NCBI GenBank assembly: GCA_964460095.1
Contig: CAYWPW010000001.1
Coordinates: 1-26,455, forward strand
Reading direction: 5' to 3'
From: an uncultured Candidatus Cloacimonadota bacterium
Lineage (GTDB): Bacteria; Cloacimonadota; Cloacimonadia; Cloacimonadales; TCS61
DNA length: 26,455 nucleotides
The notes below the pieces were generated by a model that saw only the letters and a list, made by a program, of their open reading frames with translations, was not told where the DNA came from and made no database searches. Both the position numbers and the translations under genes were made by a program. This document shows, one piece after another, positions 1 through 18,522 of this stretch (positions are counted from its first letter, which is position 1; each line of letters opens with the position of its first letter).

Positions 1-2
1 AC

Positions 3-1016
3 TACACAGGAGCAGCAATTTGTGCTACTTTAAGAGATGAAGTCCTGAATAGACCTGATCATATAAAAATTCTTGAACATCAACCTGTGGTGGAATTGAT
101 AAAAGATAATACCGGCAAAGTCTCGGGAGCAGTACTTTACCATCTTGAAAATAGAGAATACTTTACAGTGAAAGCAAAAGCAACTATTATCTCTACAGGT
201 GGTTTTGGCAGACTTCATATAAGAGATTTTGAAACTACAAACCATTATGGTGCAACCTGTGATGGTCCTGTGATAAGTTACAGAGCAGGAGCAAAACTTA
301 TGTATATGGATTCTGTTCAATATCATCCGACCGGAGCAATTTATCCACAGCAGATTATTGGATTTCTCTGCACTGAGAAACTCAGGTCTCTTGGTGCTCA
401 ACCTTTGAACATACAAAGTGAACTTTTTGTTAATCCTCTTGAACCCCGCGATGTTGAATCATCAGCTTTCATCAGGGAATGTTTGGAACGAAATAAAGGT
501 ATTAAAACACCTGATAACCATGTAGGTGTCTGGTTAGACACTCCCTTGATCGACCAGATAAATGGCAAGGGAACAATTCAAGCAAGTGTTCCGGCTATGG
601 TCAGACAATTTGCCAGGTTTGATGTAGATATGATTACGGAACCAATTCTGGTTTATCCAACTCTTCATTACCAGAATGGTGGAGTGGAAATAAATGCTCA
701 GTGTGAAACTAATATTCCCGGTCTTTTTGTAGCAGGTGAAGCATCCGGTGGAGTACACGGACGCAATAGATTAATGGGGAATTCACAGCTTGATATAATA
801 ATTTTTGGAAGAAGAGCCGGAAAATTTGCTGCTGATTATGCCAAAGGTGCAAAAATAGGTAAACTTAATCTGGATCATATTTATGAATATGAAAAAGAAG
901 TGAAAAAATTGGGGATCGATAAATCAAAAATTTCACCAATGGTTCTCCCTGATTATATTCCGGATGCAGTGAAAGCAAAACAACTTACAACCAAATATCA
1001 CGGAACTTTGAGATAA
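3..1016 (+). CDS. frdA: Fumarate reductase/succinate dehydrogenase-family flavoprotein (FrdA/SdhA/TfrA superfamily), 5'-truncated by the window edge, with a short C-terminus
   Basis: The frame is open from base 3 (YTGAAICATLRDEV...), so the ORF-track start at 87 is not the true start. Dicarboxylate-site motifs are present: QYHPTG, TEK, EPRD, PTLHYQNGG, GEASGGVHGRNRLMGNS. Confidence 0.85.
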   Translation, partial: YTGAAICATLRDEVLNRPDHIKILEHQPVVELIKDNTGKVSGAVLYHLENREYFTVKAKATIISTGGFGRLHIRDFETTNHYGATCDGPVISYRAGAKLMYMDSVQYHPTGAIYPQQIIGFLCTEKLRSLGAQPLNIQSELFVNPLEPRDVESSAFIRECLERNKGIKTPDNHVGVWLDTPLIDQINGKGTIQASVPAMVRQFARFDVDMITEPILVYPTLHYQNGGVEINAQCETNIPGLFVAGEASGGVHGRNRLMGNSQLDIIIFGRRAGKFAADYAKGAKIGKLNLDHIYEYEKEVKKLGIDKSKISPMVLPDYIPDAVKAKQLTTKYHGTLR

Positions 1017-1038
1017 GTTTTTTAATAAGGAGGTTATT

Positions 1039-2481
1039 TTGGGACTTGTAGATGTACAAAGGTTAAAAGAAATCGTAGGCGCAGAAAATGTAAAAGATGA
1101 CAAAGCCGATTTGTATGTATATGGTTCTGACTCATCAGTTCATCAAGCCATGCCCTGGGTAGTAGTAAGACCACACACAATAGAAGAAGTTCAAAATGTT
1201 ATGCGTTATGCAAATCCGAGGATGCTACCGGTTGTTGCCAGGGGAGCAGGCTCGGGTATGTCCGGTCAGGCTGTTCCCATCAAAGGTGGAATAGTAATGG
1301 ATTTTAAGAAAATGAATAAAATTCTTGAGATAAATCTTGAGGACACATTTGTCAGAGTTGAACCCGGTGTTGTGGATGATGATCTGAATCGTGCTTTGAA
1401 ACCACATAATGTATTCTATCCTCCAGCACCAGCTTCCAGCAGGATAGCTACGATCGGGGGAGAAATAGCCAACAATGCCAGCGGTGTGAGGTCTGTTAAA
1501 TACGGAGCTGTTCGGGATTCTGTTCTCGGTATGAGAGTGGTGCTGGCAAATGGAGATTTAATCGATGTTGGAGCTAAAACAAGAGTGCAGGCAACAGGCT
1601 ATCAGCTTGAAAGACTGATGGTTGGTTCCGAAGGCACCCTGGGTATTATTGTGGAAGCAACTCTGAAGATTGTTCCTATTCCTAAATTCAGATGCCTGGG
1701 AATAGCTAAATTCAATGAACTTGAAGATGCTGGTAATACAATTTCGGAAGTAATGTCCAGTGGGATTAATTTATCTATGCTGGAACTAATGGACAATATA
1801 GCTATTACTGCTGTTAATAAAGCTCTGGATTTGGGACTTCCGGATGTAGAAGCGATTCTTTTGTTTGAAGCTGACGGAATGGCAAAAGAAGCTGTTGATA
1901 TTGAAATCCAAAAAATAATTGAAATTTGTAAGAACCAAAAAGGTTTTGGTATCGATTTGAGTTATGATGCCAAAGAAAGAACAAAAATATTCTCCGGCAG
2001 GAAAAAATTGTTCCCATCTTTATCGAGATTTAAAGATTACTTTACTTGTGCATCTTTAGCTGATGATATGGCTGTCCCCTACTCTAAAATGGCAGAAACT
2101 GCCCAAAAGATTCATGAGATCGCTAAAAGAAATAATGTGATTATGACAGCTTACGGACACTGTGGTTCCGGATGTATGCATACCAAAATCCTGATGGATC
2201 CAAGAAAAGAAGCTCAATGGGAAGATGCCAAAAGAGCTGTATTCGAGATATATAATTATGTCAGATCAGTTGGAGGAACTACTTCCGCTGAACATGGGAT
2301 CGGAATATCAAAAGCTCCGGCATTTAAAAGAGAAAAATCTAACTCCTTAGGTGTAATGCGTGCCATAAAAAAGGCTTTAGATCCGAATAATGTATTAAAT
2401 CCCGGTAAGTTAATGGATGCACCGGATGATTGGGTTACTGCAACAAAATTGAGATATACTACAAAAAAAGGCATATTCTAA
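1039..2481 (+). CDS. FAD-linked oxidoreductase, GlcD/D-lactate (D-2-hydroxyacid) dehydrogenase family
   Basis: TTG start after AAGGAGG. Motifs ARGAGSGMSG, EPGVV, PAPASSRIATIGGEIANNASG, GSEGTLGII, GHCGSGCMH and SAEHGIG, plus DPNNVLNPGK near the C-terminus. Confidence 0.9.
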   Translation: MGLVDVQRLKEIVGAENVKDDKADLYVYGSDSSVHQAMPWVVVRPHTIEEVQNVMRYANPRMLPVVARGAGSGMSGQAVPIKGGIVMDFKKMNKILEINLEDTFVRVEPGVVDDDLNRALKPHNVFYPPAPASSRIATIGGEIANNASGVRSVKYGAVRDSVLGMRVVLANGDLIDVGAKTRVQATGYQLERLMVGSEGTLGIIVEATLKIVPIPKFRCLGIAKFNELEDAGNTISEVMSSGINLSMLELMDNIAITAVNKALDLGLPDVEAILLFEADGMAKEAVDIEIQKIIEICKNQKGFGIDLSYDAKERTKIFSGRKKLFPSLSRFKDYFTCASLADDMAVPYSKMAETAQKIHEIAKRNNVIMTAYGHCGSGCMHTKILMDPRKEAQWEDAKRAVFEIYNYVRSVGGTTSAEHGIGISKAPAFKREKSNSLGVMRAIKKALDPNNVLNPGKLMDAPDDWVTATKLRYTTKKGIF

Positions 2482-2527
2482 AGTTTTCTTTATCGAGAAT
2501 TTGAATAAGTTTTTAGGAGATTATTTC

Positions 2528-3112
2528 ATGGACTTTAAAAGAATTCAAAAATGGGATAATGAACTGAATATTTGCATTAGATGCGGATATTGCTTTGAAC
2601 AATGCCATCTTTTTAAGATTACTGGTTGGGAAACAGATGCTCCTCGTGGAAAGCTTATCTTGATCTATGGTTTAATACATGGAGAGACAAAACCATCAGA
2701 ATACATTGCAAATAAGATGTTTGAATGTTTCTATTGTAAAAGATGCGATAATAGTTGCTCAGCCGGAGTTTCCATAACTGATATTTTCACAGATGCAAGA
2801 GCTGATTTTGCGGATGCAGGTTTTGATGTTGATGGTACTACTTCAAAGACAAACGATGATTTGTGCAGCCGTTGTGGAATTTGTGTCTCAGTATGTAAAC
2901 ACGAAGCTCGCTCTCTGGATAAAGAGAATAAAAAGATTATAATTGATAAGGTTAAATGTCAGAGTTGCGGCTGCTGCGAAGCAGCATGTCCTTCCGGAGC
3001 TGCATATATTGTTGAAGGCTGGGAACTGGGAGAGAATGAATTGCGTGAAAAAGTGATCAATTTTTTAAAGGAAGATAATAATGAACCCAAAATCAGTAAT
3101 ATTTTGTTGTAG
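2528..3112 (+). CDS. Chimeric Fe-S protein: HdrC/HdrD/GlcF-type 4Fe-4S dicluster plus a 2x[4Fe-4S] ferredoxin resembling the HdrA C-terminal domain
   Basis: ATG at 2528 follows AGGAGA. Four Cys motifs: CIRCGYCFEQC, CFYCKRCDNSC, CSRCGICVSVC, CQSCGCCEAACP. Confidence 0.8.
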   Translation: MDFKRIQKWDNELNICIRCGYCFEQCHLFKITGWETDAPRGKLILIYGLIHGETKPSEYIANKMFECFYCKRCDNSCSAGVSITDIFTDARADFADAGFDVDGTTSKTNDDLCSRCGICVSVCKHEARSLDKENKKIIIDKVKCQSCGCCEAACPSGAAYIVEGWELGENELREKVINFLKEDNNEPKISNILL

Positions 3113-3479
3113 TTGGTCTTCATATCCTGGGTTACAGTTATCCGAAAGTCTTTATGAAGATCCCGGAAAACAAAACAATATAATCATAAGTATGTGCTCT
3201 GGTAGAGTTTCTGCAGAATTAATATTAGAAGCATTTAAAAATGATGCCTGGGGAGTAATGATAGCAAGTTGCCCAAAAGAGAAGTGTGAACATGATGCAA
3301 ATTACAAAACAAGAAGAAGGATTTTGTTACTTCAAAAAATGCTCGAGCAGTTAGGAATTGAACCTGCAAGAATAAAGCTTGAATGGATCGATAAAGGAGA
3401 AGCTGCTAAGCTGAAACTTGCGATCGATGATTTTTCAAATGAATTAAGAAAAATGGGACCTGTAAATATTATAAACTAG
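3081..3479 (+). CDS. mvhD: MvhD/FlpD [2Fe-2S] hydrogenase delta subunit
   Basis: FCCSWSSYPG, MCSGRV, SCPKEKCEH..N and LGIEPARIKLEWI match the MvhD family. The ORF overlaps the upstream gene by 32 nt and may be part of a fusion (see findings). Confidence 0.85.
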   Translation: MNPKSVIFCCSWSSYPGLQLSESLYEDPGKQNNIIISMCSGRVSAELILEAFKNDAWGVMIASCPKEKCEHDANYKTRRRILLLQKMLEQLGIEPARIKLEWIDKGEAAKLKLAIDDFSNELRKMGPVNIIN

Positions 3480-3492
3480 GAGTATATTTTTT

Positions 3493-4560
3493 ATGGAAAC
3501 AAAATATTTAAGACAATGGGAAAATGAACTTAATATTTGTATTAGATGTGGTTATTGTTTTGAGGGGTGCCCTGTTTTTAAGGAACTTGGCTGGGAAATA
3601 GATGGAGCAAGAGGTAAATTAATTGTAGCCTATGGATTACTGACTGGTGAGCTTGAACCTTCTGAACACATTGCAGAAAAGTTGTTTCAGTGTACTTTCT
3701 GTAGAGATTGCGTAGAAAGATGCTCAGCAGATATATCGGTGCCGGATATTATGGGAGCAGCCAGAGCTGATCTGTTTGAAGCAGGTTATTCTTACGACTC
3801 ACATAAAGAGCTCACAAAAAAAATTGAAAAGAGCGGCAATATCTTTGGAAAAGAACTTGAGCCTCCCGTATTTGAAGGTGATAAGGCGGTTCTATTAGGG
3901 TGCAGACTTGTTGAAAGAAAAGAAGATTCAGAGAAATATCTAACAATACTGGAAAAACTTGGAGTGAAAACAAAGACGTTTAATGAAACCTGCTGCGGTA
4001 TGCCATTTGCTGTTCTGGGTGATAAAAACGGTTTTAAAACTCAACAAGATAAATTTAGAGATACAATACCTGATAAAAAAGAAGAAGTAATTTGTGTTTG
4101 TACTACTTGTGTATTTTTTATCAGGGCAAAATATCCTGATTTGAAAGCTAAATATATAATTGATGAAATAGTGGAAAGATTGCCTGATTATAAAGGCAAA
4201 TTAAAAAAGTTAAACATTAAAGTAACATATCATGATCCCTGTAATGTAGCAAGGGGAATGGGTATGGTTGATGAACCCAGAGATATTCTAAAGAAAATTT
4301 GCTCGGAATTGGTTGAGATGCCTACTTACGGCAAGCAAGCTGAATGTTGCGGTGGTGGTGGGGGATTATTAGTATCAGATGATAAGTTAGCTGAAAAACT
4401 TGCTGAAAACCGTGTAGAACAAGCAATAGAAACCGGTGCAAAAGTTTTAACCACACTTTGTCCAACCTGCGAATTAAATCTTAAAAATGCTGCAGAAAAA
4501 TATAATGGAAAAATTAAAGTTAATAACCTTCTTGATCTTTTATACGATTCGATGATGTAG
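3493..4560 (+). CDS. HdrD/GlcF/TfrB-like Fe-S oxidoreductase with a 4Fe-4S dicluster and two CCG domains
   Basis: N-terminal CIRCGYCFEGCP and CTFCRDCVERC. Two complete CCG motifs: GC...TCCG...CTTC and HDPC...ECCGGGGG...CPTC. Confidence 0.88.
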   Translation: METKYLRQWENELNICIRCGYCFEGCPVFKELGWEIDGARGKLIVAYGLLTGELEPSEHIAEKLFQCTFCRDCVERCSADISVPDIMGAARADLFEAGYSYDSHKELTKKIEKSGNIFGKELEPPVFEGDKAVLLGCRLVERKEDSEKYLTILEKLGVKTKTFNETCCGMPFAVLGDKNGFKTQQDKFRDTIPDKKEEVICVCTTCVFFIRAKYPDLKAKYIIDEIVERLPDYKGKLKKLNIKVTYHDPCNVARGMGMVDEPRDILKKICSELVEMPTYGKQAECCGGGGGLLVSDDKLAEKLAENRVEQAIETGAKVLTTLCPTCELNLKNAAEKYNGKIKVNNLLDLLYDSMM

Positions 4561-4615
4561 AATGAGAATTAAAAAATTAAATTTTCTATAGATACTTTAA
4601 TAAATGGAGGCATAA

Positions 4616-5632
4616 GTGCCAAAACCTAAAGTAGCTTTTTATTGGTGTGCATCCTGTGGGGGTTGTGAAGAAGCCATTGTAGACCTGAATGAAGATATCC
4701 TGAAAGTAGTTGAATTGGTAGACATTGTGTTCTGGCCCTGTGCAATGGATTTCAAATATCAAGATGTTAGAAATATGAAAGACAATGAGATCACAGTTGC
4801 TTTTATAAATGGAGCTATCCGCACTGATGAGCAGGAAGAAATTGTACAACTTCTCAGGAAGAAAGCTCAACTTGTAATCGCTTTCGGATCTTGTTCTCAT
4901 CTGGGTGGAATCCCGGGATTAGCAAATTTCTGGGATAGAGAAACTATTTTTGAATCCTCTTATGGGAAGAATTGTCCTTCTGTTGATAACCCTAAAAGGA
5001 TTTTTCCACAAACAAAAAGTAAAGTTCCGGAAGGAGAACTGACTTTACCTGCTTTTCATAATACGGTAAAAAGCCTTGATCAGGTAATCGATGTGGATTA
5101 TTATATTCCCGGATGTTCTCCTGCACCATATTTAACAATGCAGGCGATAGAAGCTATTCTTGCTGGGGAATTACCAGAGAAAGGAACTGTTCTGGCTCCC
5201 TTAAAATCTTTGTGTGATGTTTGTGAACGTAATGATTCCAAACCGGAAAAAATTTCTCTGAATAAGATAAAAAGAATTTCCGAAGTAATAGCAGATCCTG
5301 AAAAGTGTTTTCTGGCTGAGGGGATTATCTGTTTGGGACCGGTTACCAGGGCAGGATGCGCTTCGGAAGGTAGTGGAAGATGTATCACAGCAAACATGCC
5401 ATGTAGAGGTTGTTATGGACCTCCACCAGAAGTAAAAGATGTTGGTGGAAAAATGATATCTTCTCTCGCTTCCATAGTAGGTTTGGAAGGTGAAGAAAAT
5501 ATGAGCGATGAAGATGTAGAAAAGCTTATTGATCAGATAGTTGATCCTGCCGGATATTTTTATCGCTTTTCTCTACCAGCTTCTTTATTAAGAAGAAAAA
5601 GGATGAATGATCCTGTAGCGGAGAATGAATAA
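4616..5632 (+). CDS. mvhG: Group 3c [NiFe]-hydrogenase small subunit MvhG
   Basis: GTG start after GGAGG. CASCGGC, GSCSHLGGIPG, PGCSP, CDVC, CLGPVTRAGC and PCRGCYG are present. Confidence 0.9.
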   Translation: MPKPKVAFYWCASCGGCEEAIVDLNEDILKVVELVDIVFWPCAMDFKYQDVRNMKDNEITVAFINGAIRTDEQEEIVQLLRKKAQLVIAFGSCSHLGGIPGLANFWDRETIFESSYGKNCPSVDNPKRIFPQTKSKVPEGELTLPAFHNTVKSLDQVIDVDYYIPGCSPAPYLTMQAIEAILAGELPEKGTVLAPLKSLCDVCERNDSKPEKISLNKIKRISEVIADPEKCFLAEGIICLGPVTRAGCASEGSGRCITANMPCRGCYGPPPEVKDVGGKMISSLASIVGLEGEENMSDEDVEKLIDQIVDPAGYFYRFSLPASLLRRKRMNDPVAENE

Positions 5633-5633
5633 A

Positions 5634-7097
5634 ATGGCTAAAAAAATAACAATAGATCCGATTACTAAATTAGAAGGTCACGGTAAAATAGAAATTTTCC
5701 TCGATGATGATGGAGATGTTAAGAATGCATATTTACAGGTTCCTGAATTGAGGGGATTCGAGCAATTCTGCGTGGGACGACCGGTAGAAGAACTGGCAAG
5801 AATAACTCCCCGCATTTGCGGTGTTTGCCCTACAACTCATCATCTGTGTTCAACTAAAACACTCGATGCTGTTTATAATGTTACACCAACAGATACCGCT
5901 GTAAAACTCAGACGACTCATCAACGATGCTTTTATTGCAGAAGATCATCTGCTTCATTTCTTCTTCCTGGGTGGTCCTGATTTTGTGGTCGGACCGGATG
6001 CTCCTCCCGGAGAAAGAAATATTCTGGGTGTTATCGGTAAGGTCGGTATTGAAATCGGTAAAAAAGTTATCGATATGAGAAGAAGGCTGCGAAGTATTAT
6101 CACCTATCTTGGTGGAAGAGTGATTCATCCTGTATGTGGTTTACCTGGCGGTATTTCAAAAGGATTACCGGAAGATCAGCGTTTAGCTTTTTTGAAAGTT
6201 GCTAAAGATGCCGTGGAATTTTCTAAGTTCTGTTTGCAGGTATTTGATGACATCGTTCTAAAAAATGATACTTACCTCGATTTAATTGTGGGTGATATTT
6301 TCAAACACCAAACTTATTACATGGGTCTGGTTGATGAAAATAACAAAGTTGATCTCTATGACGGGAAGATTCGAGTAGTTGATCCGAATGGAAAAGAATT
6401 TGTTAAATTTGAAGCAAAGGATTATCTGGATCATATTGTCGAGCATGTAGAACCCTGGAGTTATATTAAATTCCCATATTTAAAAAATATCGGTTGGAAG
6501 GGTTTTGTTGATGGAATCGACAGTGGTGTTTACCGTGTTGCTCCCCTGGCAAGACTCAATGCTGCTGATGGCATGAAAACCCCTCTGGCGCAGGCTGAAT
6601 ATGAAAAAATGTATGCTACCCTGGGAGGGAAACCTGCTCATAATACATTAGCTTTTCACTGGGCAAGATTGATAGAGGTTATGTATGTTTCTGAAGAGTT
6701 AGTTCAACTTCTTGAAGATAAATCAATCACAAATCCTGATATCAGGAATCTTCCTACAGAAACTCCAAGTGAAGGTGTTGGTGTTATCGAAGCTCCCCGG
6801 GGAACTTTGTTCCATCATTATAAAACAGATAAAAACGGTATGGTAACAAATGTAAATCTGATAGTGGCTACTGTTAATAATTCTGCTGCTATTTCCATGT
6901 CTATTGCCAAAGCTGCAAAAGGGCTGATCAGCAAAGGTAAAGTCGATGATGGACTTTTGAATATGGTGGAAATGGCTTTTCGATCTTATGATCCTTGTCT
7001 TGCTTGTGCAACGCATTCTTTGCCGGGGAAAATGCCTCTTATCGTAAATCTTCGCGATAACAACAAGGATATAGTTAAATCTATTAGAAGAGATTAG
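5634..7097 (+). CDS. mvhA: Group 3c [NiFe]-hydrogenase large subunit MvhA
   Basis: IDPITKLEGHGKI N-terminus, L1 motif RICGVC, EAPRG, and L2 motif FRSYDPCLACATH followed by a cleavable C-terminal extension. ATG 5634 is preferred over 5625. Confidence 0.93.
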   Translation: MAKKITIDPITKLEGHGKIEIFLDDDGDVKNAYLQVPELRGFEQFCVGRPVEELARITPRICGVCPTTHHLCSTKTLDAVYNVTPTDTAVKLRRLINDAFIAEDHLLHFFFLGGPDFVVGPDAPPGERNILGVIGKVGIEIGKKVIDMRRRLRSIITYLGGRVIHPVCGLPGGISKGLPEDQRLAFLKVAKDAVEFSKFCLQVFDDIVLKNDTYLDLIVGDIFKHQTYYMGLVDENNKVDLYDGKIRVVDPNGKEFVKFEAKDYLDHIVEHVEPWSYIKFPYLKNIGWKGFVDGIDSGVYRVAPLARLNAADGMKTPLAQAEYEKMYATLGGKPAHNTLAFHWARLIEVMYVSEELVQLLEDKSITNPDIRNLPTETPSEGVGVIEAPRGTLFHHYKTDKNGMVTNVNLIVATVNNSAAISMSIAKAAKGLISKGKVDDGLLNMVEMAFRSYDPCLACATHSLPGKMPLIVNLRDNNKDIVKSIRRD

Positions 7098-7105
7098 CTT
7101 TTTTA

Positions 7106-7561
7106 ATGAAAACACTTGTTTTAGGATTGGGAAATACGATTTTAACTGATGATGGAGTAGGAATAAGGGTAGCACAAAAAATAAAAGAAAGATGTAAAAA
7201 TGTCGATGTCTCCGAAGCCAGCGCTGCTGGCTTCAGAGTTATAGACGAGATAATTGGTTACGATAAACTTATTTTAATTGACTCAATAAAAACCGGAAAA
7301 TCTGAACCCGGAAAGCTTCATAAATTTACTTTTGAAGAATTCAAAAAAACAAGACATCATGCTCAACCACACGACATCAGCCTATTTGAAGCTTTTGAGA
7401 TCATTAAACAACACGGAGATAAATTACCTTCTGAAATTGAAATTTATGCCGTGGAAGTTAGTGATACATCTACTCTTTCTGAAACATGCACAATGGAAGT
7501 TGAAGCTTCTATTCCAAAAATATCTCAAAAAATCATTGATGAACAATCACTCTTTAAATAA
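7106..7561 (+). CDS. Hydrogenase maturation protease (HyaD/HycI family)
   Basis: LVLGLGNTILTDDGVG, LILIDS and H..H motifs. It lies directly after mvhA. Confidence 0.9.
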   Translation: MKTLVLGLGNTILTDDGVGIRVAQKIKERCKNVDVSEASAAGFRVIDEIIGYDKLILIDSIKTGKSEPGKLHKFTFEEFKKTRHHAQPHDISLFEAFEIIKQHGDKLPSEIEIYAVEVSDTSTLSETCTMEVEASIPKISQKIIDEQSLFK

Positions 7562-7572
7562 TTTGTATTTGT

Positions 7573-7604
7573 CATTCTCATCAGGTAACTGCCCGATGGG
7601 AATG
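7573..7604. other. Intergenic hairpin between the hydrogenase module and sucC
   Basis: CATTCTCATC (7573-7582) pairs with GATGGGAATG (7595-7604) with one G-U pair and a 12-nt loop. Confidence 0.5.
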
Positions 7605-7614
7605 TTCAATTTCT

Positions 7615-7641
7615 GTTACTAAGCTGGGGCTTAGTAACGAG
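7615..7641 (-). repeat. REP-like palindrome, family member 1
   Basis: GTTACTAAGC-TGGG-GCTTAGTAAC is a perfect 10-bp stem. Its reverse complement matches 22011-22037 at 20 of 27 positions. Confidence 0.7.
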
Positions 7642-7683
7642 GATTAATGTGCTCTGTAGTTAATAAATAAATAAAGAGGAAAA

Positions 7684-8853
7684 ATGAATATTCACGAATA
7701 TCAGGCGAAACAGATTTTTGCAAAATATGATGTTCCCATTCCTAAAGGAAAAATGATCGAAAAAGCTGAAGATGCAATTGATGCAGCTAAGGAAATAGGT
7801 GGGAATATCTGGGTAGTAAAAGCTCAGATCCACGCAGGAGGAAGAGGAAAAGGTGGTGGAGTAAAACTCGCCAGATCCCTCGATGAAGTAGAAAAATATG
7901 CTTCTGAAATAATTGGAATGACCCTGATAACTCATCAAACCGGACCTGCTGGAAAATTAGTTAAAAAAGTTTATATTGAAGGTGGGATCGATATAAAAAA
8001 GGAACTCTATCTGGGAATGGTTCTGGATAGAGCAAAAGAACTGCCTGTTATGATGGCTTCTACCGAAGGTGGAGTGGAAATCGAAAAAGTAGCTGCAGAA
8101 ATGCCAGAAAAAATCATCAAAGTTGAAATTGATCCTCTCACCGGATTTCAGGGATATCATGCTCGAGAATTAGCATTTGGTTTGAATCTTTCAAAAGAGC
8201 AGATAAAAGAATTCGGAAAATTTGCTAAAGCACTTTACAAAGTTTATTCTTTGAATGATGCAAGCCTTGTGGAAATAAATCCTTTGGTTTTAACTGCTGA
8301 TGATAAATTTATTGCACTCGATGCCAAAATGGGATTTGATGATAACGCTCTTTTCCGGCACAAAGATATTTTAGAAATGCGTGATCTGGATGAGGAAGAT
8401 CCTGCAGAAATTGAAGCAAGTGAATATGGCTTAAGCTATGTAAAACTCGATGGAAATGTGGGCTGTATGGTAAATGGAGCAGGATTGGCAATGTCAACAA
8501 TGGATATTATTAAACTCGAAGGCGGTGAACCTGCAAATTTCCTGGATGTTGGTGGCAAAGCCAGTGCAAGTACGGTTGCCAAAGGTTTTGAAATAATCCT
8601 GAAAGACCCGAATGTAAAAGCGATCCTGGTTAATATCTTTGGTGGCATTGTTCGATGTGATAGGATTGCCAACGGTATTCTGGAAGCTACAGAAACAACC
8701 CGTGTCGAGGTTCCAATTGTTGTCAGGCTGGACGGAACAAATGCCAAAGAAGCCATAGAGATAATTGGAAAATCCAGTTTAACAAATATCATTTCTGCAA
8801 CCGACCTTGGAGATGCTGCCAGAAAAGTTGTAAAAGCTGCCAAAGGAGTGTGA
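7684..8853 (+). CDS. sucC: Succinyl-CoA synthetase beta subunit
   Basis: [62 protein letters not shown]. Confidence 0.96.
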
Positions 8854-8856
8854 CCG

Positions 8857-9729
8857 ATGAGTATTTTAGTAAATAAAACTTCAAGGGTGATTGTTCAGGG
8901 TTTCACGGGAAAGGAAGGGACATTTCATGCAGAACAGTGTATTGCTTATGGCACAAATGTAGTAGGTGGTGTTACTCCCGGCAAAGGTGGTCAAACTCAT
9001 CTTGGCAGACCTGTTTTTAATACGGTAAAAGAAGCTGTAAAAGCTACAGAAACAGACACATCATTGATTCTGGTTCCACCAGCTTTTGCTGCTGATGCTA
9101 TAATGGAAGCTGCTGCTGCAGGAATTAAAGTGATCGTCTGCATAACCGAAGGTATCCCTACAAGAGATGTTATTATTGCTAAAAAATTTACTGATAAACA
9201 AGGAGCAACCTTAATTGGACCAAACTGCCCGGGAATTATTACTGCAGATGAAGCTAAGGTTGGGATTATGCCGGGCTTTGTGTTTAAAAAAGGAAAAGTG
9301 GGTTTGATTTCCAAATCCGGAACATTAACCTATGAAATGGCAAACCAGGTGGTTCTGGCAGATCTGGGAATTTCAACTGCGATAGGCATCGGTGGAGACC
9401 CGATAATAGGTACAACTATCATCGATCTTTTAAAGCTTTTTGAAAAAGACAAAGAAACAGAAGCAATAGTTATTATCGGTGAGATCGGTGGTGATATGGA
9501 AATTCAAGCAGCGGAGTATATCAAAGAAAATATCACGAAACCTGTAGTGGCATTCATAGCTGGACGTACAGCTCCCAAAGGAAAACGAATGGGACACGCT
9601 GGAGCTATTATTGCCGGAAGTAAAGGTACAGCCCAGGAAAAAATGGATGCACTTACAAAAGCTGGAGTTACTGTGGTTGATTCTCCTGCTGATATAGGGG
9701 TGAAAGTTCGAGAGATTCTTAATAAATAA
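8857..9729 (+). CDS. sucD: Succinyl-CoA synthetase alpha subunit
   Basis: [40 protein letters not shown], and the phospho-His motif MGHAGA. Confidence 0.96.
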
Positions 9730-9752
9730 TACTCTGAACAAAGGAAGGTTAT

Positions 9753-10577
9753 ATGAATGACATAGAAAAAACTAATAAAACTGCAGAAGAATATAAAATG
9801 CAGGGAGAGTTGTTGAAAGCTTCCCAAGAGTATAATAAAATATTGGATAAAGATCCGAATAATATTAATTCAAGGATAAGTCTCGCAGATATTTATTATA
9901 TTCTTGGTGATATTAATAAATCAATAGAGCAGTATGAAAAAGCTGTTGAACTAAAACCTCATTATGGCTTGGTTTTATACCGTTTGGGCATTTCATATTT
10001 TCGGGCTACAAAATTCTATAAAGCGATTTCTGTTCTGGACAGGGTAATCAAATTAGATCCAGATTTATATATGGCTTATTATTGGAAAGGTCTTTCTTAT
10101 TATCATATCGGAAGAGTTCGGAAAAGTATCGAATCATACAAAAAGCTCCGGGAAAAGGGGAAGGACAGCACTTTAGGATATTATCATCTGGCAATTTCCT
10201 ATAAAACTATCGGGAATTATAAAGAAGCAATAAAATGTCTCGAACAGATTTTAAAGGAAGAACAAAATATCGTTTCAGTCAATTATCATCTCGGTCTTTC
10301 ATATTTGGGACTTTCAAAAATTGAAAAAGCTCTCCTATGCTTCAAAAAAGTTCTGGAAATCGATTCCGAACATCAGGGAGCAAAAGATATCCTCGGTAAT
10401 CTCTCTACTGATCAGGAAATGCTTTATACGTTCGGTATTGAGGAATCAAAAAGAGACAGTAACATCGAGGAATTAATTACTAACTATCATGTTGGAGAAA
10501 CTTACAAAGGATTTTCTTCTATTGATAGAGCATTTAAATATTTTAGAAAAAAACTTAAGGAAAAACAAAAGGACTAG
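9753..10577 (+). CDS. Tetratricopeptide-repeat protein (paralogue of 25542-26213)
   Basis: Repeating ~34-aa TPR units (Y..LG..Y, A...Y.K). No catalytic domain is evident. Confidence 0.85.
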   Translation: MNDIEKTNKTAEEYKMQGELLKASQEYNKILDKDPNNINSRISLADIYYILGDINKSIEQYEKAVELKPHYGLVLYRLGISYFRATKFYKAISVLDRVIKLDPDLYMAYYWKGLSYYHIGRVRKSIESYKKLREKGKDSTLGYYHLAISYKTIGNYKEAIKCLEQILKEEQNIVSVNYHLGLSYLGLSKIEKALLCFKKVLEIDSEHQGAKDILGNLSTDQEMLYTFGIEESKRDSNIEELITNYHVGETYKGFSSIDRAFKYFRKKLKEKQKD

Positions 10578-10658
10578 CAATAAAGATTGTTTTTTAAAAA
10601 AAATTGTTTTCTAAGATAAAAATGTTCCTTAGAAAAGTAAATTATATTAGGAGAATTT

Positions 10659-11504
10659 ATGCGAGAAATTGATGTTAATAAGATTATTCCAATAGTAAAA
10701 AAACTCTGTATTGATGCGAGTATTTACATTGGAGACGATGTGGTTGAGAAGCTTAAAGAGTTTCAGGAAAAGGAAGAATCTCCTATCGCAAAAGAGATTA
10801 TTTCCATAATTTTTGAGAATCAGAGATTATCTGTTGAGAAACAAATGCCTTTGTGCCAGGATACAGGAGTAGCTGTATTTTTTATTGAGCTCGGACAAGA
10901 TGTTCACCTGGTAGGAGGTGATTTTTATAAAGCTATCAACGAGGGCGTTCGTCAGGGTTATAAAGAAGGTTACTTGCGAAAATCTATGGTTGATGATCCA
11001 ATTATTGAAAGAAAAAACACCAAAGATAATACTCCTGCACTTATTTATTTGGATATTGTTCAGGGAGATAAGATAAAAATTACTCTTGCAGCAAAAGGTG
11101 GTGGTTCCGAAAATATGAGCGAAGTAAAAATGATGAAAGCCGCTGATGGAATCGAAGGTGTAATAGATTTTGTTGTGGATAGAGTTAAAAGGTCAGGTGG
11201 AAATCCATGCCCACCAATTATCGTTGGAGTTGGTCTGGGTGGAAATTTTGAACAAAGTGCTCTGCTGGCAAAGAAATCTCTTCTCCGTCCTTTGAATGAA
11301 AAACACCCCGATCCTAAGTGGGCGAAAGTTGAAGAAGAAATTTTAGAAAAAGTTAATAACCTGGGGATAGGACCACAGGGATTGGGTGGCAGAACAACTG
11401 CCATTGCTGTTCAAATATTGGCTAAACCTTGCCATATAGCTTCAATGCCGGTTGCTGTAAACATTCAATGTCATGTTCACAGACATAAAAGTGCAGTGAT
11501 ATAA
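10659..11504 (+). CDS. fumA: Fe-S class I fumarate hydratase, alpha subunit (FumA/TtdA family)
   Basis: PLCQDTG, DNTPA, KGGGSEN, NPCPP and CHVHRH motifs, in a TCA context. Confidence 0.88.
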   Translation: MREIDVNKIIPIVKKLCIDASIYIGDDVVEKLKEFQEKEESPIAKEIISIIFENQRLSVEKQMPLCQDTGVAVFFIELGQDVHLVGGDFYKAINEGVRQGYKEGYLRKSMVDDPIIERKNTKDNTPALIYLDIVQGDKIKITLAAKGGGSENMSEVKMMKAADGIEGVIDFVVDRVKRSGGNPCPPIIVGVGLGGNFEQSALLAKKSLLRPLNEKHPDPKWAKVEEEILEKVNNLGIGPQGLGGRTTAIAVQILAKPCHIASMPVAVNIQCHVHRHKSAVI

Positions 11505-11515
11505 AAGGAGAAATA

Positions 11516-12070
11516 ATGGCTAAAGAAATACATTTACAGACTCCACTAAAAGATGAAGATCTGGAAAAACTCAATATTGGTGACAAGGTTCTCATTACGG
11601 GAACCGTGTACACAGCACGCGATGCTGCTCATAAAAGACTTGTTGACTTAATAGAAGCAGGAAAAGAGCTTCCTTTTGATATTAAAGGACAGATAATCTA
11701 TTTTGTCGGTCCTGCTCCTGCTAGACCGGGAATGCCTATCGGTTCAGCAGGTCCCACAACTAGCTACAGAATGGATTCCTATTCCCCAATTCTTCTGGAT
11801 GAAGGCTTAAAAGGGATGATTGGAAAAGGACCCAGAAGTAAAGAAGTCATTAATTCAATGATAAAAAATAAAGGCGTGTATTTTGCGGCAATCGGTGGAG
11901 CTGCAGTTGTAATGGCTCAATCCATAAAAGCTGCAAAAGTGATAGCTTATGAAGATCTTGGAACGGAAGCGATAAGAGAATTGAAAGTGGAAAACCTACC
12001 ATGCATTGTTGCAAATGATGTTTATGGTAATGATTTATTTGATGAAGGAGTTAAAAAATACAGAAAATGA
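11516..12070 (+). CDS. fumB: Fe-S class I fumarate hydratase, beta subunit (FumB/TtdB family)
   Basis: TARDAAHKR, GPTTSYRMD, GKGPR and EDLGTEA motifs. It is adjacent to the alpha subunit. Confidence 0.88.
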   Translation: MAKEIHLQTPLKDEDLEKLNIGDKVLITGTVYTARDAAHKRLVDLIEAGKELPFDIKGQIIYFVGPAPARPGMPIGSAGPTTSYRMDSYSPILLDEGLKGMIGKGPRSKEVINSMIKNKGVYFAAIGGAAVVMAQSIKAAKVIAYEDLGTEAIRELKVENLPCIVANDVYGNDLFDEGVKKYRK

Positions 12071-12107
12071 AATTCTTGTTCCCAAGTTTGACTTGGGAAC
12101 AAGAATT
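12071..12107. repeat. REP-like palindrome, family member 2 (perfect 17-bp stem)
   Basis: AATTCTTGTTCCCAAGT-TTG-ACTTGGGAACAAGAATT starts immediately after the fumB stop codon. It shares the CTTGTTCCCA...TGGGAAC core with 22128-22154. Confidence 0.8.
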
Positions 12108-12125
12108 ATCAAACAAGGAGGTATT

Positions 12126-13049
12126 ATGGAAAAAGTTTCAATTATTGGTAGTGGGAATGTTGGAACCGCAGCAGCATTCTATATAGCGGAGAAGTGTACT
12201 GCGAATATTATGCTAATTGACATCTTAGAAGGAAAAGCTGAAGGTAGCGCTTTGGACCTTGCAGAAGCTTCTCCACTACGTGATTATGATATTAAAATCG
12301 AAGGATCTTCAAACATTGAAGATATCAAAGATTCCAAAGTAGTTGTAATAACTGCTGGAAAAGTGAGAAAACCTAATACATTACGACTTGAACTTCTAGA
12401 AGAAAACGTAAAAATTATCGACCCGATAATCAAAGACATCAAAAAATATGCGCCTGATTCAATCGTTATTATTCTTACAGAACCAATAACATCAATGACA
12501 TATTATGCTTGGAAAAAATTAGGTTTCGATCGACAAAAAGTTCTTGGTGTTGCTGGCAAATTAGACGTTGCCAGAGTTTGTGAATTCGTCTCTCAGGAAC
12601 TCAAAGTGACTCCTGTTGAAGTTAGCGCACTTGTACTTGGAGGTCATCACAAATTTATGGTAATTCCACCTGAGTTTATAAGAGTGTGCGGTATTCCAAT
12701 AAACGAACTGATTCCTAAAGACCGTGTTGATCAAATCATCACTAAAGTTAGAGAAGCCGGAACTGATATTCTTACATTACTCAAAAAACAAACCTCCATG
12801 TATTCTCCAGGTGCTGCTATAGCTGAAACCGTCGGTGCGATCATTAATGACACAAAAGCAATTCTTTGCGTTCCAACTTGCCTTGAAGGTGAATACGGAT
12901 TCAAGGACTTATGTTTGGGTGTACCCGTACAAATAGGGATAAATGGTATTGAAAAAATTATTGAATTAGAACTCTCCCTTGATATTAAGGAGAAACTTCA
13001 AATCTCTGCTGATGTGATAAAGAAAACCATTGAATCTTTGGGAATATAG
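12126..13049 (+). CDS. Divergent LDH-like malate dehydrogenase paralogue
   Basis: ATG 12126 follows AAGGAGG; the ORF-track start at 12006 lies inside fumB. IIGSGNVG, TAGKVRKP..LR, LDVAR and LGGH are present, but the conserved TNP motif reads TEP. Confidence 0.8.
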   Translation: MEKVSIIGSGNVGTAAAFYIAEKCTANIMLIDILEGKAEGSALDLAEASPLRDYDIKIEGSSNIEDIKDSKVVVITAGKVRKPNTLRLELLEENVKIIDPIIKDIKKYAPDSIVIILTEPITSMTYYAWKKLGFDRQKVLGVAGKLDVARVCEFVSQELKVTPVEVSALVLGGHHKFMVIPPEFIRVCGIPINELIPKDRVDQIITKVREAGTDILTLLKKQTSMYSPGAAIAETVGAIINDTKAILCVPTCLEGEYGFKDLCLGVPVQIGINGIEKIIELELSLDIKEKLQISADVIKKTIESLGI

Positions 13050-13057
13050 GAGGAACC

Positions 13058-13990
13058 ATGAAAGTTAGTATAATTGGAAGCGGAAATGTTGGTGTTGCCT
13101 GTGCACTTTATTTGGCAGAAAAGCGTGTTTCGAATATTGTTTTAATCGATGTTGTAGAAGGCTGGGCAGAAGGTAAAGCAATGGATATTGTACAAGCTTC
13201 TCCGATTCGACGATATGATGTTTTTATCAATGGCTATTCTGATATCAGTATGATAAAAGATTCTGAGGTGGTTGTAGTCACAGCAGGTAAGCCAAGATTA
13301 CCTGGCATGTCCAGAGAAGATTTACTGCGTGATAACGTAAAAATTATGAAAAATGTTTCAGAAAGCATCGCCAGATATGCCCCGAATTCAATCGTCATCA
13401 CTGTTACAAATCCTCTTGATATTCTGGCTTATGTAGCTTTGAAAGTTACAGGTTTTGCATTGAAGAAAGTTATTGGTATGGCCGGAATACTTGATTCTTC
13501 AAGATTTAGATATTTTATTGCCCATGAACTTGGAGTAAGTCCTAAAAATGTTACTGCTCTTGTATTAGGTGGTCATGGTGATTTGATGGTACCTTTACCG
13601 CGATATTCAACAGTTCATGGAATTCCGGTTTCAGAACTTTTACCAAAAGCAAAAATTGATAAACTAATAGAACGCACCCGCAAAGCCGGTGGTGAAATTG
13701 TGGCATATCTCAAAACTGGTAGTGCGTATTGGTCACCTGGTAGCTCGGCAGCAGAGATGGCTGAATGCATAGTTCGTAATAGAAATAGAATAGTACCTTG
13801 CTCAGCATATCTAAGAGGAGAATACGGAATTGACGGTTTGTTTGCTGGTGTTCCAATCAAAATCGGTAGAAATGGAGTTGAGGAAATAATCGAATTGTCA
13901 CTCACTACTGAAGAAACACAAGCCCTACATCTTTCAGCTGAAAAAGTAAGGGAAGTTATTGAAAAAATCGAAGCGGAAAAACTTATTTGA
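13058..13990 (+). CDS. mdh: Malate dehydrogenase (NAD, LDH-like tetrameric type)
   Basis: IIGSGNVG, TAGKPRLPGMSREDLL (both substrate Arg residues), VTNPLD, LDSSR, LGGHGD. Confidence 0.93.
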   Translation: MKVSIIGSGNVGVACALYLAEKRVSNIVLIDVVEGWAEGKAMDIVQASPIRRYDVFINGYSDISMIKDSEVVVVTAGKPRLPGMSREDLLRDNVKIMKNVSESIARYAPNSIVITVTNPLDILAYVALKVTGFALKKVIGMAGILDSSRFRYFIAHELGVSPKNVTALVLGGHGDLMVPLPRYSTVHGIPVSELLPKAKIDKLIERTRKAGGEIVAYLKTGSAYWSPGSSAAEMAECIVRNRNRIVPCSAYLRGEYGIDGLFAGVPIKIGRNGVEEIIELSLTTEETQALHLSAEKVREVIEKIEAEKLI

Positions 13991-15327: not shown

Positions 15328-15407
15328 TATTTTATTCAACTTACTATATTTTAGCAAGTTGTGAATCTTATTAAACGTATAATTTGAGTACAAGAAAAAA
15401 AAATAAA

Positions 15408-16733: not shown

Positions 16734-16772
16734 CAAAATATTATAAATAAAAATTTAGGAGTAAAAAAACAA

Positions 16773-18455: not shown

Positions 18456-18460
18456 GAACA

Positions 18461-18522
18461 GTAGCCCAACACTCCGTGGCGGAAAAGATTTGTTTGATGA
18501 AGGCGTACGAAGATATAAAAAT
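18461..18522 (+). pseudogene. Relic of the 3' end of a fumB-like gene
   Basis: 18487-18522 encodes DLFDEGVRRYKN, against DLFDEGVKKYRK at the end of the intact fumB (12032-12067). The bases upstream resemble a frameshifted VANDxxG motif. Confidence 0.6.

Follow-up and report, generated by a model that had tools for sequence, protein, structure and literature searches.

A GlcD-adaptor-MvhD module in the Hdr/Tfr/Mvh cluster of Cloacimonadota and its possible role as an H2-linked 2-oxoacid wire

Proteins of the MvhD type are the universal plug by which hydrogenases, formate dehydrogenases, and NADH modules are joined to bifurcating enzymes of the HdrA type. In Cloacimonadota, the MvhADG-HdrABC system is typical of clade B (2025 survey, PMC12590816), and a cluster with genes for thiol:fumarate reductase (TFR), 2-oxoglutarate:ferredoxin oxidoreductase (OGOR), fumarase, succinyl-CoA synthetase, a group 3c Mvh hydrogenase, and Hdr has been reported in 'Ca. 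Celaenobacter' from Ace Lake, where it has been interpreted as an H2-driven reverse tricarboxylic acid (TCA) cycle (Williams et al. 2021, PMC8542988). The Tfr/Mvh/Hdr/TCA cluster of this phylum is, as such, already published, and a glycolate or lactate dehydrogenase is mentioned in neither of these two sources. The DNA studied here is a stretch of 26,455 nucleotides from an uncultured Candidatus Cloacimonadota bacterium (assembly GCA_964460095.1, contig CAYWPW010000001.1), referred to below in its full length as the window. Its region 1039-7561 is the hydrogenase end of an Hdr/Tfr/Mvh redox cluster of about 20 kb, belonging to the (reductive) C4 branch of the TCA cycle. In this region a GlcD-like flavoprotein, an Fe-S adaptor, and an MvhD paralogue are encoded side by side, and GlcD-adaptor-MvhD is a real, widely conserved unit.

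An initial annotation, made from the letters of this DNA, had named no characterised complex of this kind hard-wired to Mvh. What appears new is the core of the cluster and not the cluster itself, for which the descriptions cited above exist. In the literature searched (subscription journals not covered) no description was found of the GlcD-adaptor-MvhD module, of the MvhD clade to which its third member belongs, of the gene fusions, of mvhGA operons free of HdrA, or of the link with a malate-racemase-like LarA; the searches turned up only generic GlcD/HdrD pairs and the known Cloacimonadota Tfr/Mvh/Hdr cluster. Current annotations of the module genes are generic ('ferredoxin', '4Fe-4S dicluster domain-containing protein', 'hydrogenase iron-sulfur subunit').

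The GlcD-adaptor-MvhD module

The window is one co-directional array on the + strand, in which neighbouring genes are separated by 8-55 bp or overlap throughout positions 1016-7561, and domain and profile searches bear out the gene content and order that had been annotated at first. The first member of the module is a GlcD-like FAD-dependent D-2-hydroxyacid dehydrogenase of a module-specific subfamily (1039-2481, +; PF01565 FAD_binding_4 and PF02913 FAD-oxidase_C; motif YGHCGSGCMHTKI). It is followed by the adaptor (2528-3112, +), an Fe-S protein with four CxxCxxCxxxC motifs, each of the [4Fe-4S] type, which is divided into a head (residues 1-108) and a tail (about 110-170), and by an MvhD paralogue, here named MvhD_S (3081-3479, +; PF02662, FlpD), whose gene overlaps that of the adaptor by 32 nt. 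After them come a 355-aa HdrD/GlcF/TfrB-like protein with a Fer4_8 head and two complete CCG motifs (3493-4560, +), named hereafter the CCG protein, and the hydrogenase genes. These encode MvhG, the small subunit of a group 3c [NiFe]-hydrogenase (4616-5632, +; PF01058; top NCBIfam model VhuG, 187 bits), MvhA, its large subunit (5625-7097, gene-caller start 5634, +; PF00374; top NCBIfam model VhuA), and a maturation endopeptidase of the HycI type (7106-7561, +; PF01750; TIGR00072, 109 bits above cut-off). Both nickel-site motifs are present in MvhA (RICGVCPTTHH and DPCLACATH), its score of 416 bits for VhuA lying below the equivalog cut-off of 800. The assignment to group 3c is supported by the nickel-site motifs of the large subunit and its closeness to Mvh/Vhu, by the PF01058 and VhuG matches of MvhG, and by a maturation protease encoded in the same operon.

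Homologues of the adaptor number 371 in the search made with it, and many of them are fused to MvhD in proteins of 310-340 aa. When one genome per species was scanned, 336 loci were obtained, and the best 80 were analysed with flanks of 10 kb and annotated by phmmer with reference proteins taken from the window and its relatives. A synteny survey had been proposed with the initial annotation. In 57 of the 73 loci whose upstream DNA reaches far enough, GlcD is encoded directly 5' of the adaptor, and six others have the order GlcD-CCG-adaptor; adaptor and MvhD are fused in 46 of the 80 loci, and in 77 of 78 MvhD is either fused to the adaptor or its neighbour. The module is found in about 15 named lineages of bacteria and archaea, including, among others, Cloacimonadota, KSB1, Marinimicrobia, Armatimonadota, Dehalococcoidia/Chloroflexota, Acidobacteriota, and WOR-3, and also Coatesbacteria, Spirochaetia, Gemmatimonadota, Planctomycetota, Desulfobacteraceae, Thermoplasmatota, and Woesearchaeota. 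Taking into account that full-length adaptors collapse to about five representatives when 1.8 billion proteins are clustered at 50% identity, the adaptor is a tight and specific family.

The MvhD of the module is a specialised paralogue that can be told apart from all others. The initial annotation had recognised neither this nor the pointers to D-malate in the LarA and malate-enzyme contexts. The window protein aligns over its full length with 5odc_D (E=2e-26) and has FCCSWSSY where canonical MvhD has FCCNWCTY; the second Cys of the N-terminal CxxC is thus a Ser, so that four of the canonical set of five cysteines are kept. In a neighbour-joining tree of 133 MvhD sequences from the loci, all 81 adaptor-linked proteins fall in one clade, perfectly separate from the rest. 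The second CxxC cysteine is present in none of these 81 and is replaced by Ser in 76; among the 52 other MvhDs, which are encoded beside HdrA, HycI, or FdhB-like genes, 50 have the Cys, one has a gap, and one is unaccounted for in the column counts. The remaining four cysteines are invariant in both groups. With regard to the hydrogenase, the window MvhA falls in a mostly bacterial MvhA clade that is usually encoded beside MvhD_S. This clade is not exclusive, since hydrogenases accompanied by canonical MvhD are not cleanly separated from it, and for this reason no co-evolution of MvhA and MvhD_S is claimed.

The adaptor is a chimera. Its head is of the type found in GlcF and in the CCG protein, and with the corresponding part of the window CCG protein it shares 54% identity (E=2e-41). 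Identification of this head as HdrC was considered and rejected, because the true HdrC of a relative gives a marginal match (E=1e-4) compared with the 2e-41 of the CCG-protein head. The head profile also matches the Fer4_8 domains that directly follow complete GlcD domains in the natural fusions P0163, P0215, P0252, and P0160; since this type of head follows GlcD in natural fusions, a Rosetta-stone argument suggests that the adaptor head docks on GlcD. The tail resembles the C-terminal ferredoxin domain of HdrA (PDB matches 9sfi_A, 8rvu_a, 5odc_A) and, together with MvhD, is collinear with positions ~565-775 of HdrA2. As judged from these alignments, the adaptor is in effect a GlcF in which the 'ferredoxin + MvhD' end of an HdrA2 has taken the place of the CCG domains. 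The polyferredoxins MvhB and FwdF are also matched by the adaptor profile.

The CCG protein has two CxxCxxCxxxC motifs in its head and two CCG motifs, C137..CC167/168..C203xxC206 and C250..CC285/286..C323xxC326, with the spacings C-X29-CC-X32-CxC-X2-C and C-X34-CC-X36-C-X2-C. Its PDB matches include HdrB and HdrC. Thus, HdrB-type CCG motifs (reference CX31-39CCX35-36CXXC) and an HdrC-type dicluster are combined in a single protein of 355 aa. Its top NCBIfam model is TfrB, matched over positions 131-485 with 167 bits against a cut-off of 385. The possibility that it is solely the thiol-oxidising half of TfrB was set aside, because it is also encoded between GlcD and the adaptor in loci without TfrA (L046, L067, and L072), and it is therefore not assigned to TFR alone. 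Neither is it regarded as a core part of the module, since it is present in only 14 of the 80 loci, often in the order GlcD-CCG-adaptor, TfrA-free loci included.

The surroundings of the module can be arranged in four context classes. In class (a), found in Acidobacteriota, Spirochaetia, and Planctomycetota, GlcD and a fused Adapt::MvhD_S are immediately followed by LarA, a nickel-pincer racemase, and by no other recognisable gene. In class (b), from Dehalococcoidia, the order is GlcD-Adapt::MvhD-LarA-FumA-HdrC-HdrB-FrdB-TfrA-FumB, without HdrA. In class (c), comprising 13 loci, mvhG-mvhA lie directly 3' of MvhD_S. Class (d) consists of the large Hdr/Mvh clusters of Thermoplasmatota and Cloacimonadota, where canonical MvhD occurs together with MvhD_S. 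Over the whole set of 80 loci, LarA is immediately 3' of MvhD_S in 22, the module is bordered by FumA/B in 18 and accompanied by hdrA in 29, and SucCD lie immediately 5' of GlcD in 11 loci besides that of the window. Since classes (a) and (b) have no hydrogenase, MvhD_S must have partners other than hydrogenases too; the loci of class (c), for their part, show that the arrangement first put forward, Mvh linked in cis with a GlcD flavoprotein and no HdrA, occurs in nature. Examples are L067, L071, and L072, in which MvhD_S is the sole mvhD. No hdrA was found within about 10 kb on either side in L067 and L072, nor within 6.2 kb upstream and 10 kb downstream in L071. The L072 operon (3209-13417) runs LarA-MaeB-GlcD-CCG-adaptor-MvhD_S-MvhG-MvhA and is followed by genes for a histidine kinase and a sigma-54 response regulator; that of L071 (660-9789, Coatesbacteria) has the same order minus the CCG gene. 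In both, MaeB is an NADP-malic enzyme of 750 aa with a PTA domain, and no hdrA is present in 16-20 kb. These two operons are the cleanest natural test case for an HdrA-independent GlcD-Mvh complex, and operons of the form GlcD-CCG-adaptor-MvhD-MvhG-MvhA without hdrA are found in L046, L067, and L072.

As a separate observation, the Thermoplasmatota loci L044, L049, L052-L054, L066, L068, and L083 share the order hdrA(~1080 aa)-hdrC-hdrB-mvhG-mvhA-hycI-mvhD-glcD-adaptor::mvhD_S-mvhD-fdhB-like-hdrA(~650)-hdrA(~1300), so that three MvhD copies of two kinds are encoded in one Hdr/Mvh locus.

hdrA genes in and around the window

The system had initially been described as HdrA-less. As far as the window is concerned this was correct, since tblastn searches of the whole window with HdrA, HdrB, and HdrC found no HdrA FAD domain, the sole matches being the CCG-protein head and the ferredoxin domain of the adaptor (2837-3004; 43% identity to HdrA 587-642). 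As a description of the system it does not hold. The CCG protein is identical, residue for residue, on 20 public contigs, and window positions 1-14560 correspond to 4954-19513 of the public contig L006 (99.97% identity), which adds 4,953 bp upstream. At its left edge (3-1016, +) the window contains the C-terminal 338 of the 555 residues of a TfrA/FrdA-like fumarate reductase flavoprotein, whose frame is open from base 3, whose 5' end lies beyond the edge, and whose complete gene is L006 4302-5969; positions 166-413 of the FAD_binding_2 profile are matched, and the top NCBIfam model is TfrA NF004900, under its cut-off. Upstream of this tfrA, L006 encodes a FrdB-like 2Fe-2S/4Fe-4S protein of 230 aa, two FdhB-like proteins of 368 and 389 aa (PDB matches 9t1s_M, 8rvu_E, 7bkb_E), and, at the contig end, an hdrA-like protein of at least 413 aa with Pyr_redox_2 and a C-terminal ferredoxin domain, which matches NCBIfam HdrA2 at positions 310-639 with 314 bits. 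A distance of 3.7 kb separates the end of the hdrA-like gene from window base 1, with no change of strand or contig. Taking into account that the same contig runs upstream into this gene, the absence of HdrA is largely an effect of the window edge. An hdrA lying just upstream and co-purifying with Mvh had been named at the outset as the observation that would tell against an HdrA-less system; its gene-level half is borne out by the hdrA paralogues, canonical mvhD, and FdhB-like genes just upstream.

The closest metagenome-assembled genome (MAG) is Candidatus Cloacimonadota CSMAG_2896 (L010), with an adaptor protein 96% identical to that of the window and a locus DNA identity of about 83-91%. 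Its upstream order is mvhD-hdrA(426 aa)-hdrA(566 aa)-fdhB-like-fdhB-like-frdB-tfrA, and a further, canonical hdrA(666 aa)-mvhD pair is located between the CCG gene and mvhG, which makes three hdrA in the cluster overall. The cluster as a whole is thus not HdrA-less. At the mvh junction the situation is different: the DNA alignment places L010 12056-14547, the 2.5 kb that contain hdrA-mvhD, against 33 bp at window 4584-4616, and the 33-bp state is also found in L006-L009 and L011. The absence of hdrA at the mvh junction is, then, real in the window strain, unlike in the closest MAG. With the canonical hdrA-mvhD pair of L010 missing, mvhGA have no mvhD next to them in the window other than MvhD_S, and mvhG comes after the CCG gene and not directly after MvhD_S. 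In a more distant member of Cloacimonadota (L001), hdrC-hdrB-hdrA-mvhD lie directly 5' of frdB-tfrA.

Two side observations concern this upstream DNA. The tfrA gene is unusually divergent between the window and L010 (66% DNA identity, compared with 83-91% for the adjoining genes). Moreover, L006 1-3536 and L010 1-5746 delimit a conserved set of five genes, formed by mvhD, an hdrA of ~430 aa limited to the FAD core, a longer hdrA (~570 aa) in which a ferredoxin domain is added at the C-terminus, and a pair of paralogues for FdhB-like Fe-S/flavin proteins (389 and 368-372 aa), with no FdhA in the set. It recurs in L010, L017, L019, L023, L024, L026, L030, L055, and L063, beside SucCD/GlcD or FrdB/TfrA, and may be an uncharacterised bifurcating unit of the Hdr type.

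Substrate, electron path, and competing explanations

The best PDB matches of the window GlcD are a glycolate oxidase (9qgz, 8e-80), LctD of Ldh-EtfAB (7qh2_C, 6e-78), and mouse LDHD (9e-62), D2HGDH being more distant. The residues of subsites A and B of mouse LDHD, and the positively charged pocket of D2HGDH with its Asn443, have been described (PMC10589216), and the window protein and 65 module orthologues were aligned and mapped to the mouse numbering, the offset being checked on H398 and H405. R321, H374, H381, E418, and H419 of the window protein correspond to R347, H398, H405, E442, and H443 of mouse LDHD and are invariant in the 65 orthologues; since the subsite-A residues are invariant, the module GlcD should be catalytically competent. 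In subsite B, which forms the side-chain pocket, W351 is replaced by an invariant Phe and S365 by an invariant Ala, and an invariant Lys (K383, motif HTKI) occupies the position of LDHD Ile407 and D2HGDH Asn443. Such a cationic pocket, as opposed to the hydrophobic lactate pocket of LDHD, argues for a substrate with an anionic side chain, such as D-malate. Residues 373-386 read YGHCG[SA]G[CV]xHTKI in the module and GH[AV]GDGN[LF]H in LctD, LDHD, and 9qgz. It may be added that 64 of 65 module GlcDs carry a Cys behind the first metal-binding His, and that 41 of 65 have another Cys as well.

The racemase points in the same direction. The LarA of the window scores 355 bits with NF052593, the model of the LarAH6 malate racemases, and 276 with that of lactate racemase. 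The ten module-adjacent LarAs that were sampled, from at least seven phyla, all have LarAH6 as their top model, with 374-397 bits; the window LarA included, the lactate-racemase scores are 276-313 bits and the margin over them is 78-105. By these profile scores the window LarA is closest to the LarAH6 family, without being a member of it. The recurrent neighbours of the module are enzymes of malate and other C4 acids (fumarase, Mdh, malic enzyme, SucCD, TfrA/FrdB), and in Dehalococcoidia the gene order parallels a pathway from oxaloacetate through D-malate, L-malate, and fumarate to succinate. D-lactate, suggested by the homology with LctD and LDHD, was downgraded as a substrate on account of the invariant Lys, the malate-racemase-like LarA, and the malate-enzyme neighbours. 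The substrate pair is probably D-malate/oxaloacetate.

On this basis it is proposed, as the explanation we favour although we hold it tentatively and somewhat short of an even chance, that GlcD-adaptor-MvhD_S is an H2-linked D-2-hydroxyacid/2-oxoacid wire within a reductive C4 cluster that also contains Hdr. H2 would be oxidised at the [NiFe] site of MvhA, and the electrons would pass through the three clusters of MvhG to the [2Fe-2S] cluster of MvhD_S, from there through the four clusters of the adaptor to the FAD of GlcD, and finally to a 2-oxoacid, the likeliest reaction being the reduction of oxaloacetate to D-malate. The LarA-like racemase would then convert D-malate to L-malate, fumarase would release fumarate, TfrA/FrdB would reduce it to succinate, and SucCD would form succinyl-CoA. 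The CCG protein, having an adaptor-type head, could be a second and optional Fe-S outlet of GlcD toward a thiol/disulfide pair, whereas the upstream hdrA paralogues, canonical mvhD, and FdhB-like genes would probably constitute a separate bifurcating unit able to use the same hydrogenase. The gene content, domain anatomy, conservation, and fusions of the module, its MvhD clade, the intact GlcD residues, and the upstream hdrA are observed; which proteins touch, which way the electrons run, and what the substrate is are inferred from the genes and their products. Group 3c enzymes are typically uptake hydrogenases, and for this clade a reductive TCA setting is already on record (PMC8542988). Taking into account the textbook potentials (H2, -414 mV; oxaloacetate/malate, -172 mV; pyruvate/lactate, -190 mV), electron transfer from H2 to oxaloacetate would be exergonic without bifurcation, and the reverse would need a second driving force. 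The chain Mvh-MvhD-adaptor-GlcD, with or without the CCG protein, is the simplest reading of the 13 mvhGA-linked loci, among them L067, L071, and L072, which have no nearby hdrA.

Several points weigh against this proposal. The GlcD-family enzymes are known as dehydrogenases, working in the oxidative direction, and oxaloacetate could already be reduced in this genome by its two NAD-type Mdh paralogues. The GlcD of the window scores 402 bits with TIGR00387, under the glcD cut-off of 568, and the LarA scores of 355-397 bits are under the 500 of NF052593. The argument drawn from Lys383 comes from sequence mapping and not from a structure. Many module loci, in Acidobacteriota, Spirochaetia, and Dehalococcoidia, have no hydrogenase within 10 kb. 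To our knowledge, the MvhD-like proteins of all characterised complexes plug a donor into HdrA, which favours GlcD as a donor, and, as hdrA is present in the cluster of this genome, MvhD_S could dock on HdrA and not on MvhG.

The last points lead to a somewhat unlikely explanation to which substantial weight is nevertheless given, because the characterised MvhD-type proteins are on the donor side and so many loci are devoid of a hydrogenase. According to it, GlcD-adaptor-MvhD_S would be a donor module, oxidising D-malate or D-lactate (racemised by LarA) and plugging through MvhD_S into an HdrA-type flavoprotein, by which these electrons and those of reduced ferredoxin would be confurcated onto H+ (through Mvh), fumarate, or a disulfide; it would be the Hdr-based analogue of Ldh-EtfAB (LctBCD with the LctF racemase), with MvhAG-MvhD, FdhAB-MvhD, and FlxABCD as precedents. 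MvhD is indeed located between the donor (MvhAG or FdhAB) and HdrA in 5odc, 7bkb, and 8rvu, and the lct operon of Acetobacterium woodii likewise couples a GlcD-type enzyme with a LarA racemase. The presence of hdrA in 29 of 80 loci and upstream in this genome, a GlcD nearly as close to LctD as to its top PDB match, and the description of most Cloacimonadota as fermenters (PMC12590816) are in its favour as well. It is at odds with L067, L071, L072, and the like, where mvhGA follow MvhD_S with no hdrA in 6-10 kb, with the lack of the canonical hdrA-mvhD at the mvh junction of the window, and with the Dehalococcoidia loci, in which the module is coupled with HdrCB-FrdB-TfrA and no HdrA; besides, hydroxyacid oxidation to H2 would be strongly endergonic without a second driving reaction. 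The idea first put forward, an Mvh-MvhD-adaptor-GlcD chain without HdrA, is partly supported, being sustained by the hdrA-free operons and weakened by the hdrA in this genome's own cluster. In a reading that goes further, and is unlikely, MvhAG and GlcD-adaptor-MvhD_S, either by themselves or joined by the CCG protein, would form a [NiFe]-hydrogenase:2-oxoacid oxidoreductase that stands alone and needs no HdrA, for instance an H2:oxaloacetate reductase making D-malate. A stronger version, in which the GlcD flavin and two Fe-S branches replace HdrA/HdrBC and bifurcate among H2, 2-oxoacid, and disulfide or ferredoxin, is decidedly unlikely. The two paralogous heads with different tails would fit a two-branch geometry round one flavoenzyme, the hdrA-free operons that include the CCG gene exist, and the window strain lacks the hdrA-mvhD pair present at the L010 junction; against this, hdrA lies upstream of the window on the same strand, the CCG protein is missing from most module loci, and no ferredoxin-reducing outlet could be identified. 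We know of no VAO/GlcD-family flavin that bifurcates, the bifurcating flavin of Ldh-EtfAB being that of Etf, and the bifurcation at the GlcD flavin that had been considered possible at first received no support from any of the analyses.

There remain two further explanations. Following the published annotation (Williams et al. 2021), TFR and Hdr would simply include the Fe-S and CCG proteins among their parts, and GlcD would be an unrelated neighbour; Mvh-Hdr would bifurcate electrons from H2 to a heterodisulfide and ferredoxin, and TFR would consume the thiols. The top NCBIfam models of the CCG protein (TfrB 131-485) and of the flavoprotein (TfrA), the canonical hdr-mvh order of L010, where the CCG gene is followed by hdrA-mvhD-mvhGA, the description of this very cluster in Ca. 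Celaenobacter (PMC8542988), and a cysteate synthase gene downstream, which hints at sulfonate or thiol cofactor chemistry, agree with such a view. However, the scores of TfrA and TfrB are far under the equivalog cut-offs, the CCG protein is encoded between GlcD and the adaptor in TfrA-free L046, L067, and L072, and the joint travel of GlcD, adaptor, and MvhD clade across phyla, often without TfrA, Hdr, or Mvh nearby, is left unexplained, so that we consider it very unlikely. Finally, the neighbourhood might be coincidental, GlcD and the CCG protein being an ordinary D-lactate/glycolate dehydrogenase of the sulfate-reducer type, the adaptor a generic polyferredoxin, and Mvh the partner of an HdrABC encoded elsewhere. 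Pairs of GlcD and Fer4_8/CCG proteins are common as lactate dehydrogenases in anaerobes (PMC5165239), and polyferredoxins, two of which are matched by the adaptor profile, are frequent near hydrogenases. The comparative data argue strongly against coincidence: the fusion of adaptor and MvhD in 46 loci, the perfect separation of the MvhD_S clade, the GlcD-adaptor order kept in 63 of 73 loci of bacteria and archaea, and the tightness of the adaptor family (about five clusters at 50% identity) make it highly improbable.

A widespread plug-in module based on GlcD would extend the MvhD toolkit to organic acids and would give the MvhD_S clade a function. If the D-malate reading is true, several uncultured anaerobic phyla would route part of the C4 branch via D-malate and a nickel-pincer racemase, a route that could be directly driven by H2, and the metabolism reconstructed for Cloacimonadota, Marinimicrobia, Dehalococcoidia, Acidobacteriota, and Thermoplasmatota would change. 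The H2-dependent oxidoreductase, if real, would be a new class of carbon-skeleton reductase, which could supply D-malate to a racemase-dependent variant of the reductive TCA branch; operons with the CCG gene could then encode a new Hdr-like complex for energy coupling, centred on a flavin of the VAO family. The system is compact, comprising 5-6 genes.

The rest of the array and comparison with known systems

Downstream of the hydrogenase genes, the + strand array continues with the reductive C4 branch. SucC/SucD of succinyl-CoA synthetase (7684-9729) are followed by a TPR-repeat protein (9753-10577), which keeps the same place after sucD in L001 and L006, by the alpha and beta parts of a class I fumarate hydratase (10659-12070; PF05681, PF05683), and by two tandem malate/lactate dehydrogenase (Mdh/Ldh) paralogues (12006-13990). 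The first of these (an open reading frame of 347 aa; 344 aa according to gene callers) scores 311 bits against the 352 of the bacterial-Mdh equivalog cut-off and may use another 2-oxoacid; the second is above the cut-off. The LarA-family racemase (13987-15327), a nickel-pincer 2-hydroxyacid racemase nearest to the LarAH6 malate racemases, comes next, and then a cysteate-synthase-like PLP enzyme (15384-16733; TIGR03844, 422 bits, over the equivalog cut-off of 325). Located between the LarA-like racemase and a malic enzyme, this gene is unexpected for a bacterial TCA cluster, and it may hint at sulfonate chemistry, such as coenzyme M-like thiols for TFR/Hdr, sulfolactate, or sulfonolipids. The order that follows it is malic enzyme, divergent PEPCK-like protein, citrate (Si)-synthase, aconitase, isocitrate dehydrogenase, and TPR protein. 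The PEPCK-like protein of 583 aa (18692-20443) has weak matches (PF01293, 34 bits; NF006821, 78 bits against a cut-off of 369) and is either divergent or a different enzyme within the TCA cluster. Positions 20708-25527 encode citrate (Si)-synthase, which exceeds its cut-off with 502 bits, together with aconitase and isocitrate dehydrogenase. In Ca. Celaenobacter, by contrast, ATP citrate lyase adjoins aconitase and isocitrate dehydrogenase (Williams et al. 2021, PMC8542988), and this strain may differ from it or reverse the oxidative TCA cycle via citrate synthase. The TPR-repeat protein at 25542-26213 is the second one amid an otherwise metabolic array. In a scan of the window for promoters and terminators, the counts did not exceed the shuffled expectation and were uninformative on operon limits.

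With respect to known systems, the locus shares with MvhADG-HdrABC (5ODC) the group 3c MvhA/MvhG with HycI, an MvhD of the FlpD fold, an HdrC-like head with two CCG motifs, here in one protein, and hdrA paralogues, which in this case belong to the part of the cluster that precedes the window. It differs in that the MvhD beside mvhGA belongs to a separate clade lacking one Cys and always found with a GlcD-linked adaptor, in that the window strain has no hdrA at the mvh junction, and in that a fused protein of the HdrD/GlcF-like kind stands in for HdrB and HdrC. The resemblance with FdhAB-MvhD-HdrABC (7BKB, 8RVU) and FlxABCD-HdrABC lies in the modular joining of a dehydrogenase, via Fe-S proteins, to a [2Fe-2S] protein of the MvhD family. 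Here, however, the dehydrogenase is a GlcD/VAO flavoenzyme, a role unreported in the literature searched, and the connector is a chimera of GlcF head and HdrA tail; the Fdh/Flx plug docks on HdrA, and the present one may have either MvhG or HdrA as its partner. As in the HdrA2 of Methanosarcina, where a C-terminal ferredoxin is fused to MvhD, the adaptor tail and MvhD are collinear, although the FAD/thioredoxin-reductase core is absent from the adaptor and a GlcF-type head is found instead.

The systems centred on a flavoenzyme give a similar picture. Like Methanothermobacter TfrAB, this soluble system has a TfrA-like flavoprotein, and its FrdB-like and CCG parts jointly span the TfrB domains, but they are encoded on separate genes and score far under the equivalog cut-offs, the full-length L006 gene reaching 319 of the 718 bits of the TfrA model, so that it falls outside TfrAB. 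With GlcDEF, with the GlcD plus HdrD-like lactate dehydrogenases of sulfate reducers, and with archaeal GlcD::HdrD, it shares a GlcD and a Fer4_8/2xCCG subunit, to whose head that of the adaptor is homologous; it departs from them in that the adaptor has a ferredoxin domain and MvhD in place of the CCG domains, and in its link to a cytoplasmic hydrogenase and not to the membrane or the quinone pool, and no GlcE-like gene was found in the window or in L006. With Ldh-EtfAB (LctBCD, 7QH2), accompanied by LctF in A. woodii, the parallels are a GlcD-type enzyme, a racemase of the LarA family, and a dedicated electron-transfer partner. The partner is in this case an Fe-S adaptor with MvhD, with no EtfA/EtfB domains in the window or in L006, the racemase is nearest to malate racemases, and the pocket has an invariant Lys. 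Since their defining features were looked for and are lacking, the system is not assigned to GlcDEF, LctBCD, or TfrAB. By analogy, the module would work like the MvhD-plugged donor modules and like Ldh-EtfAB with its racemase.

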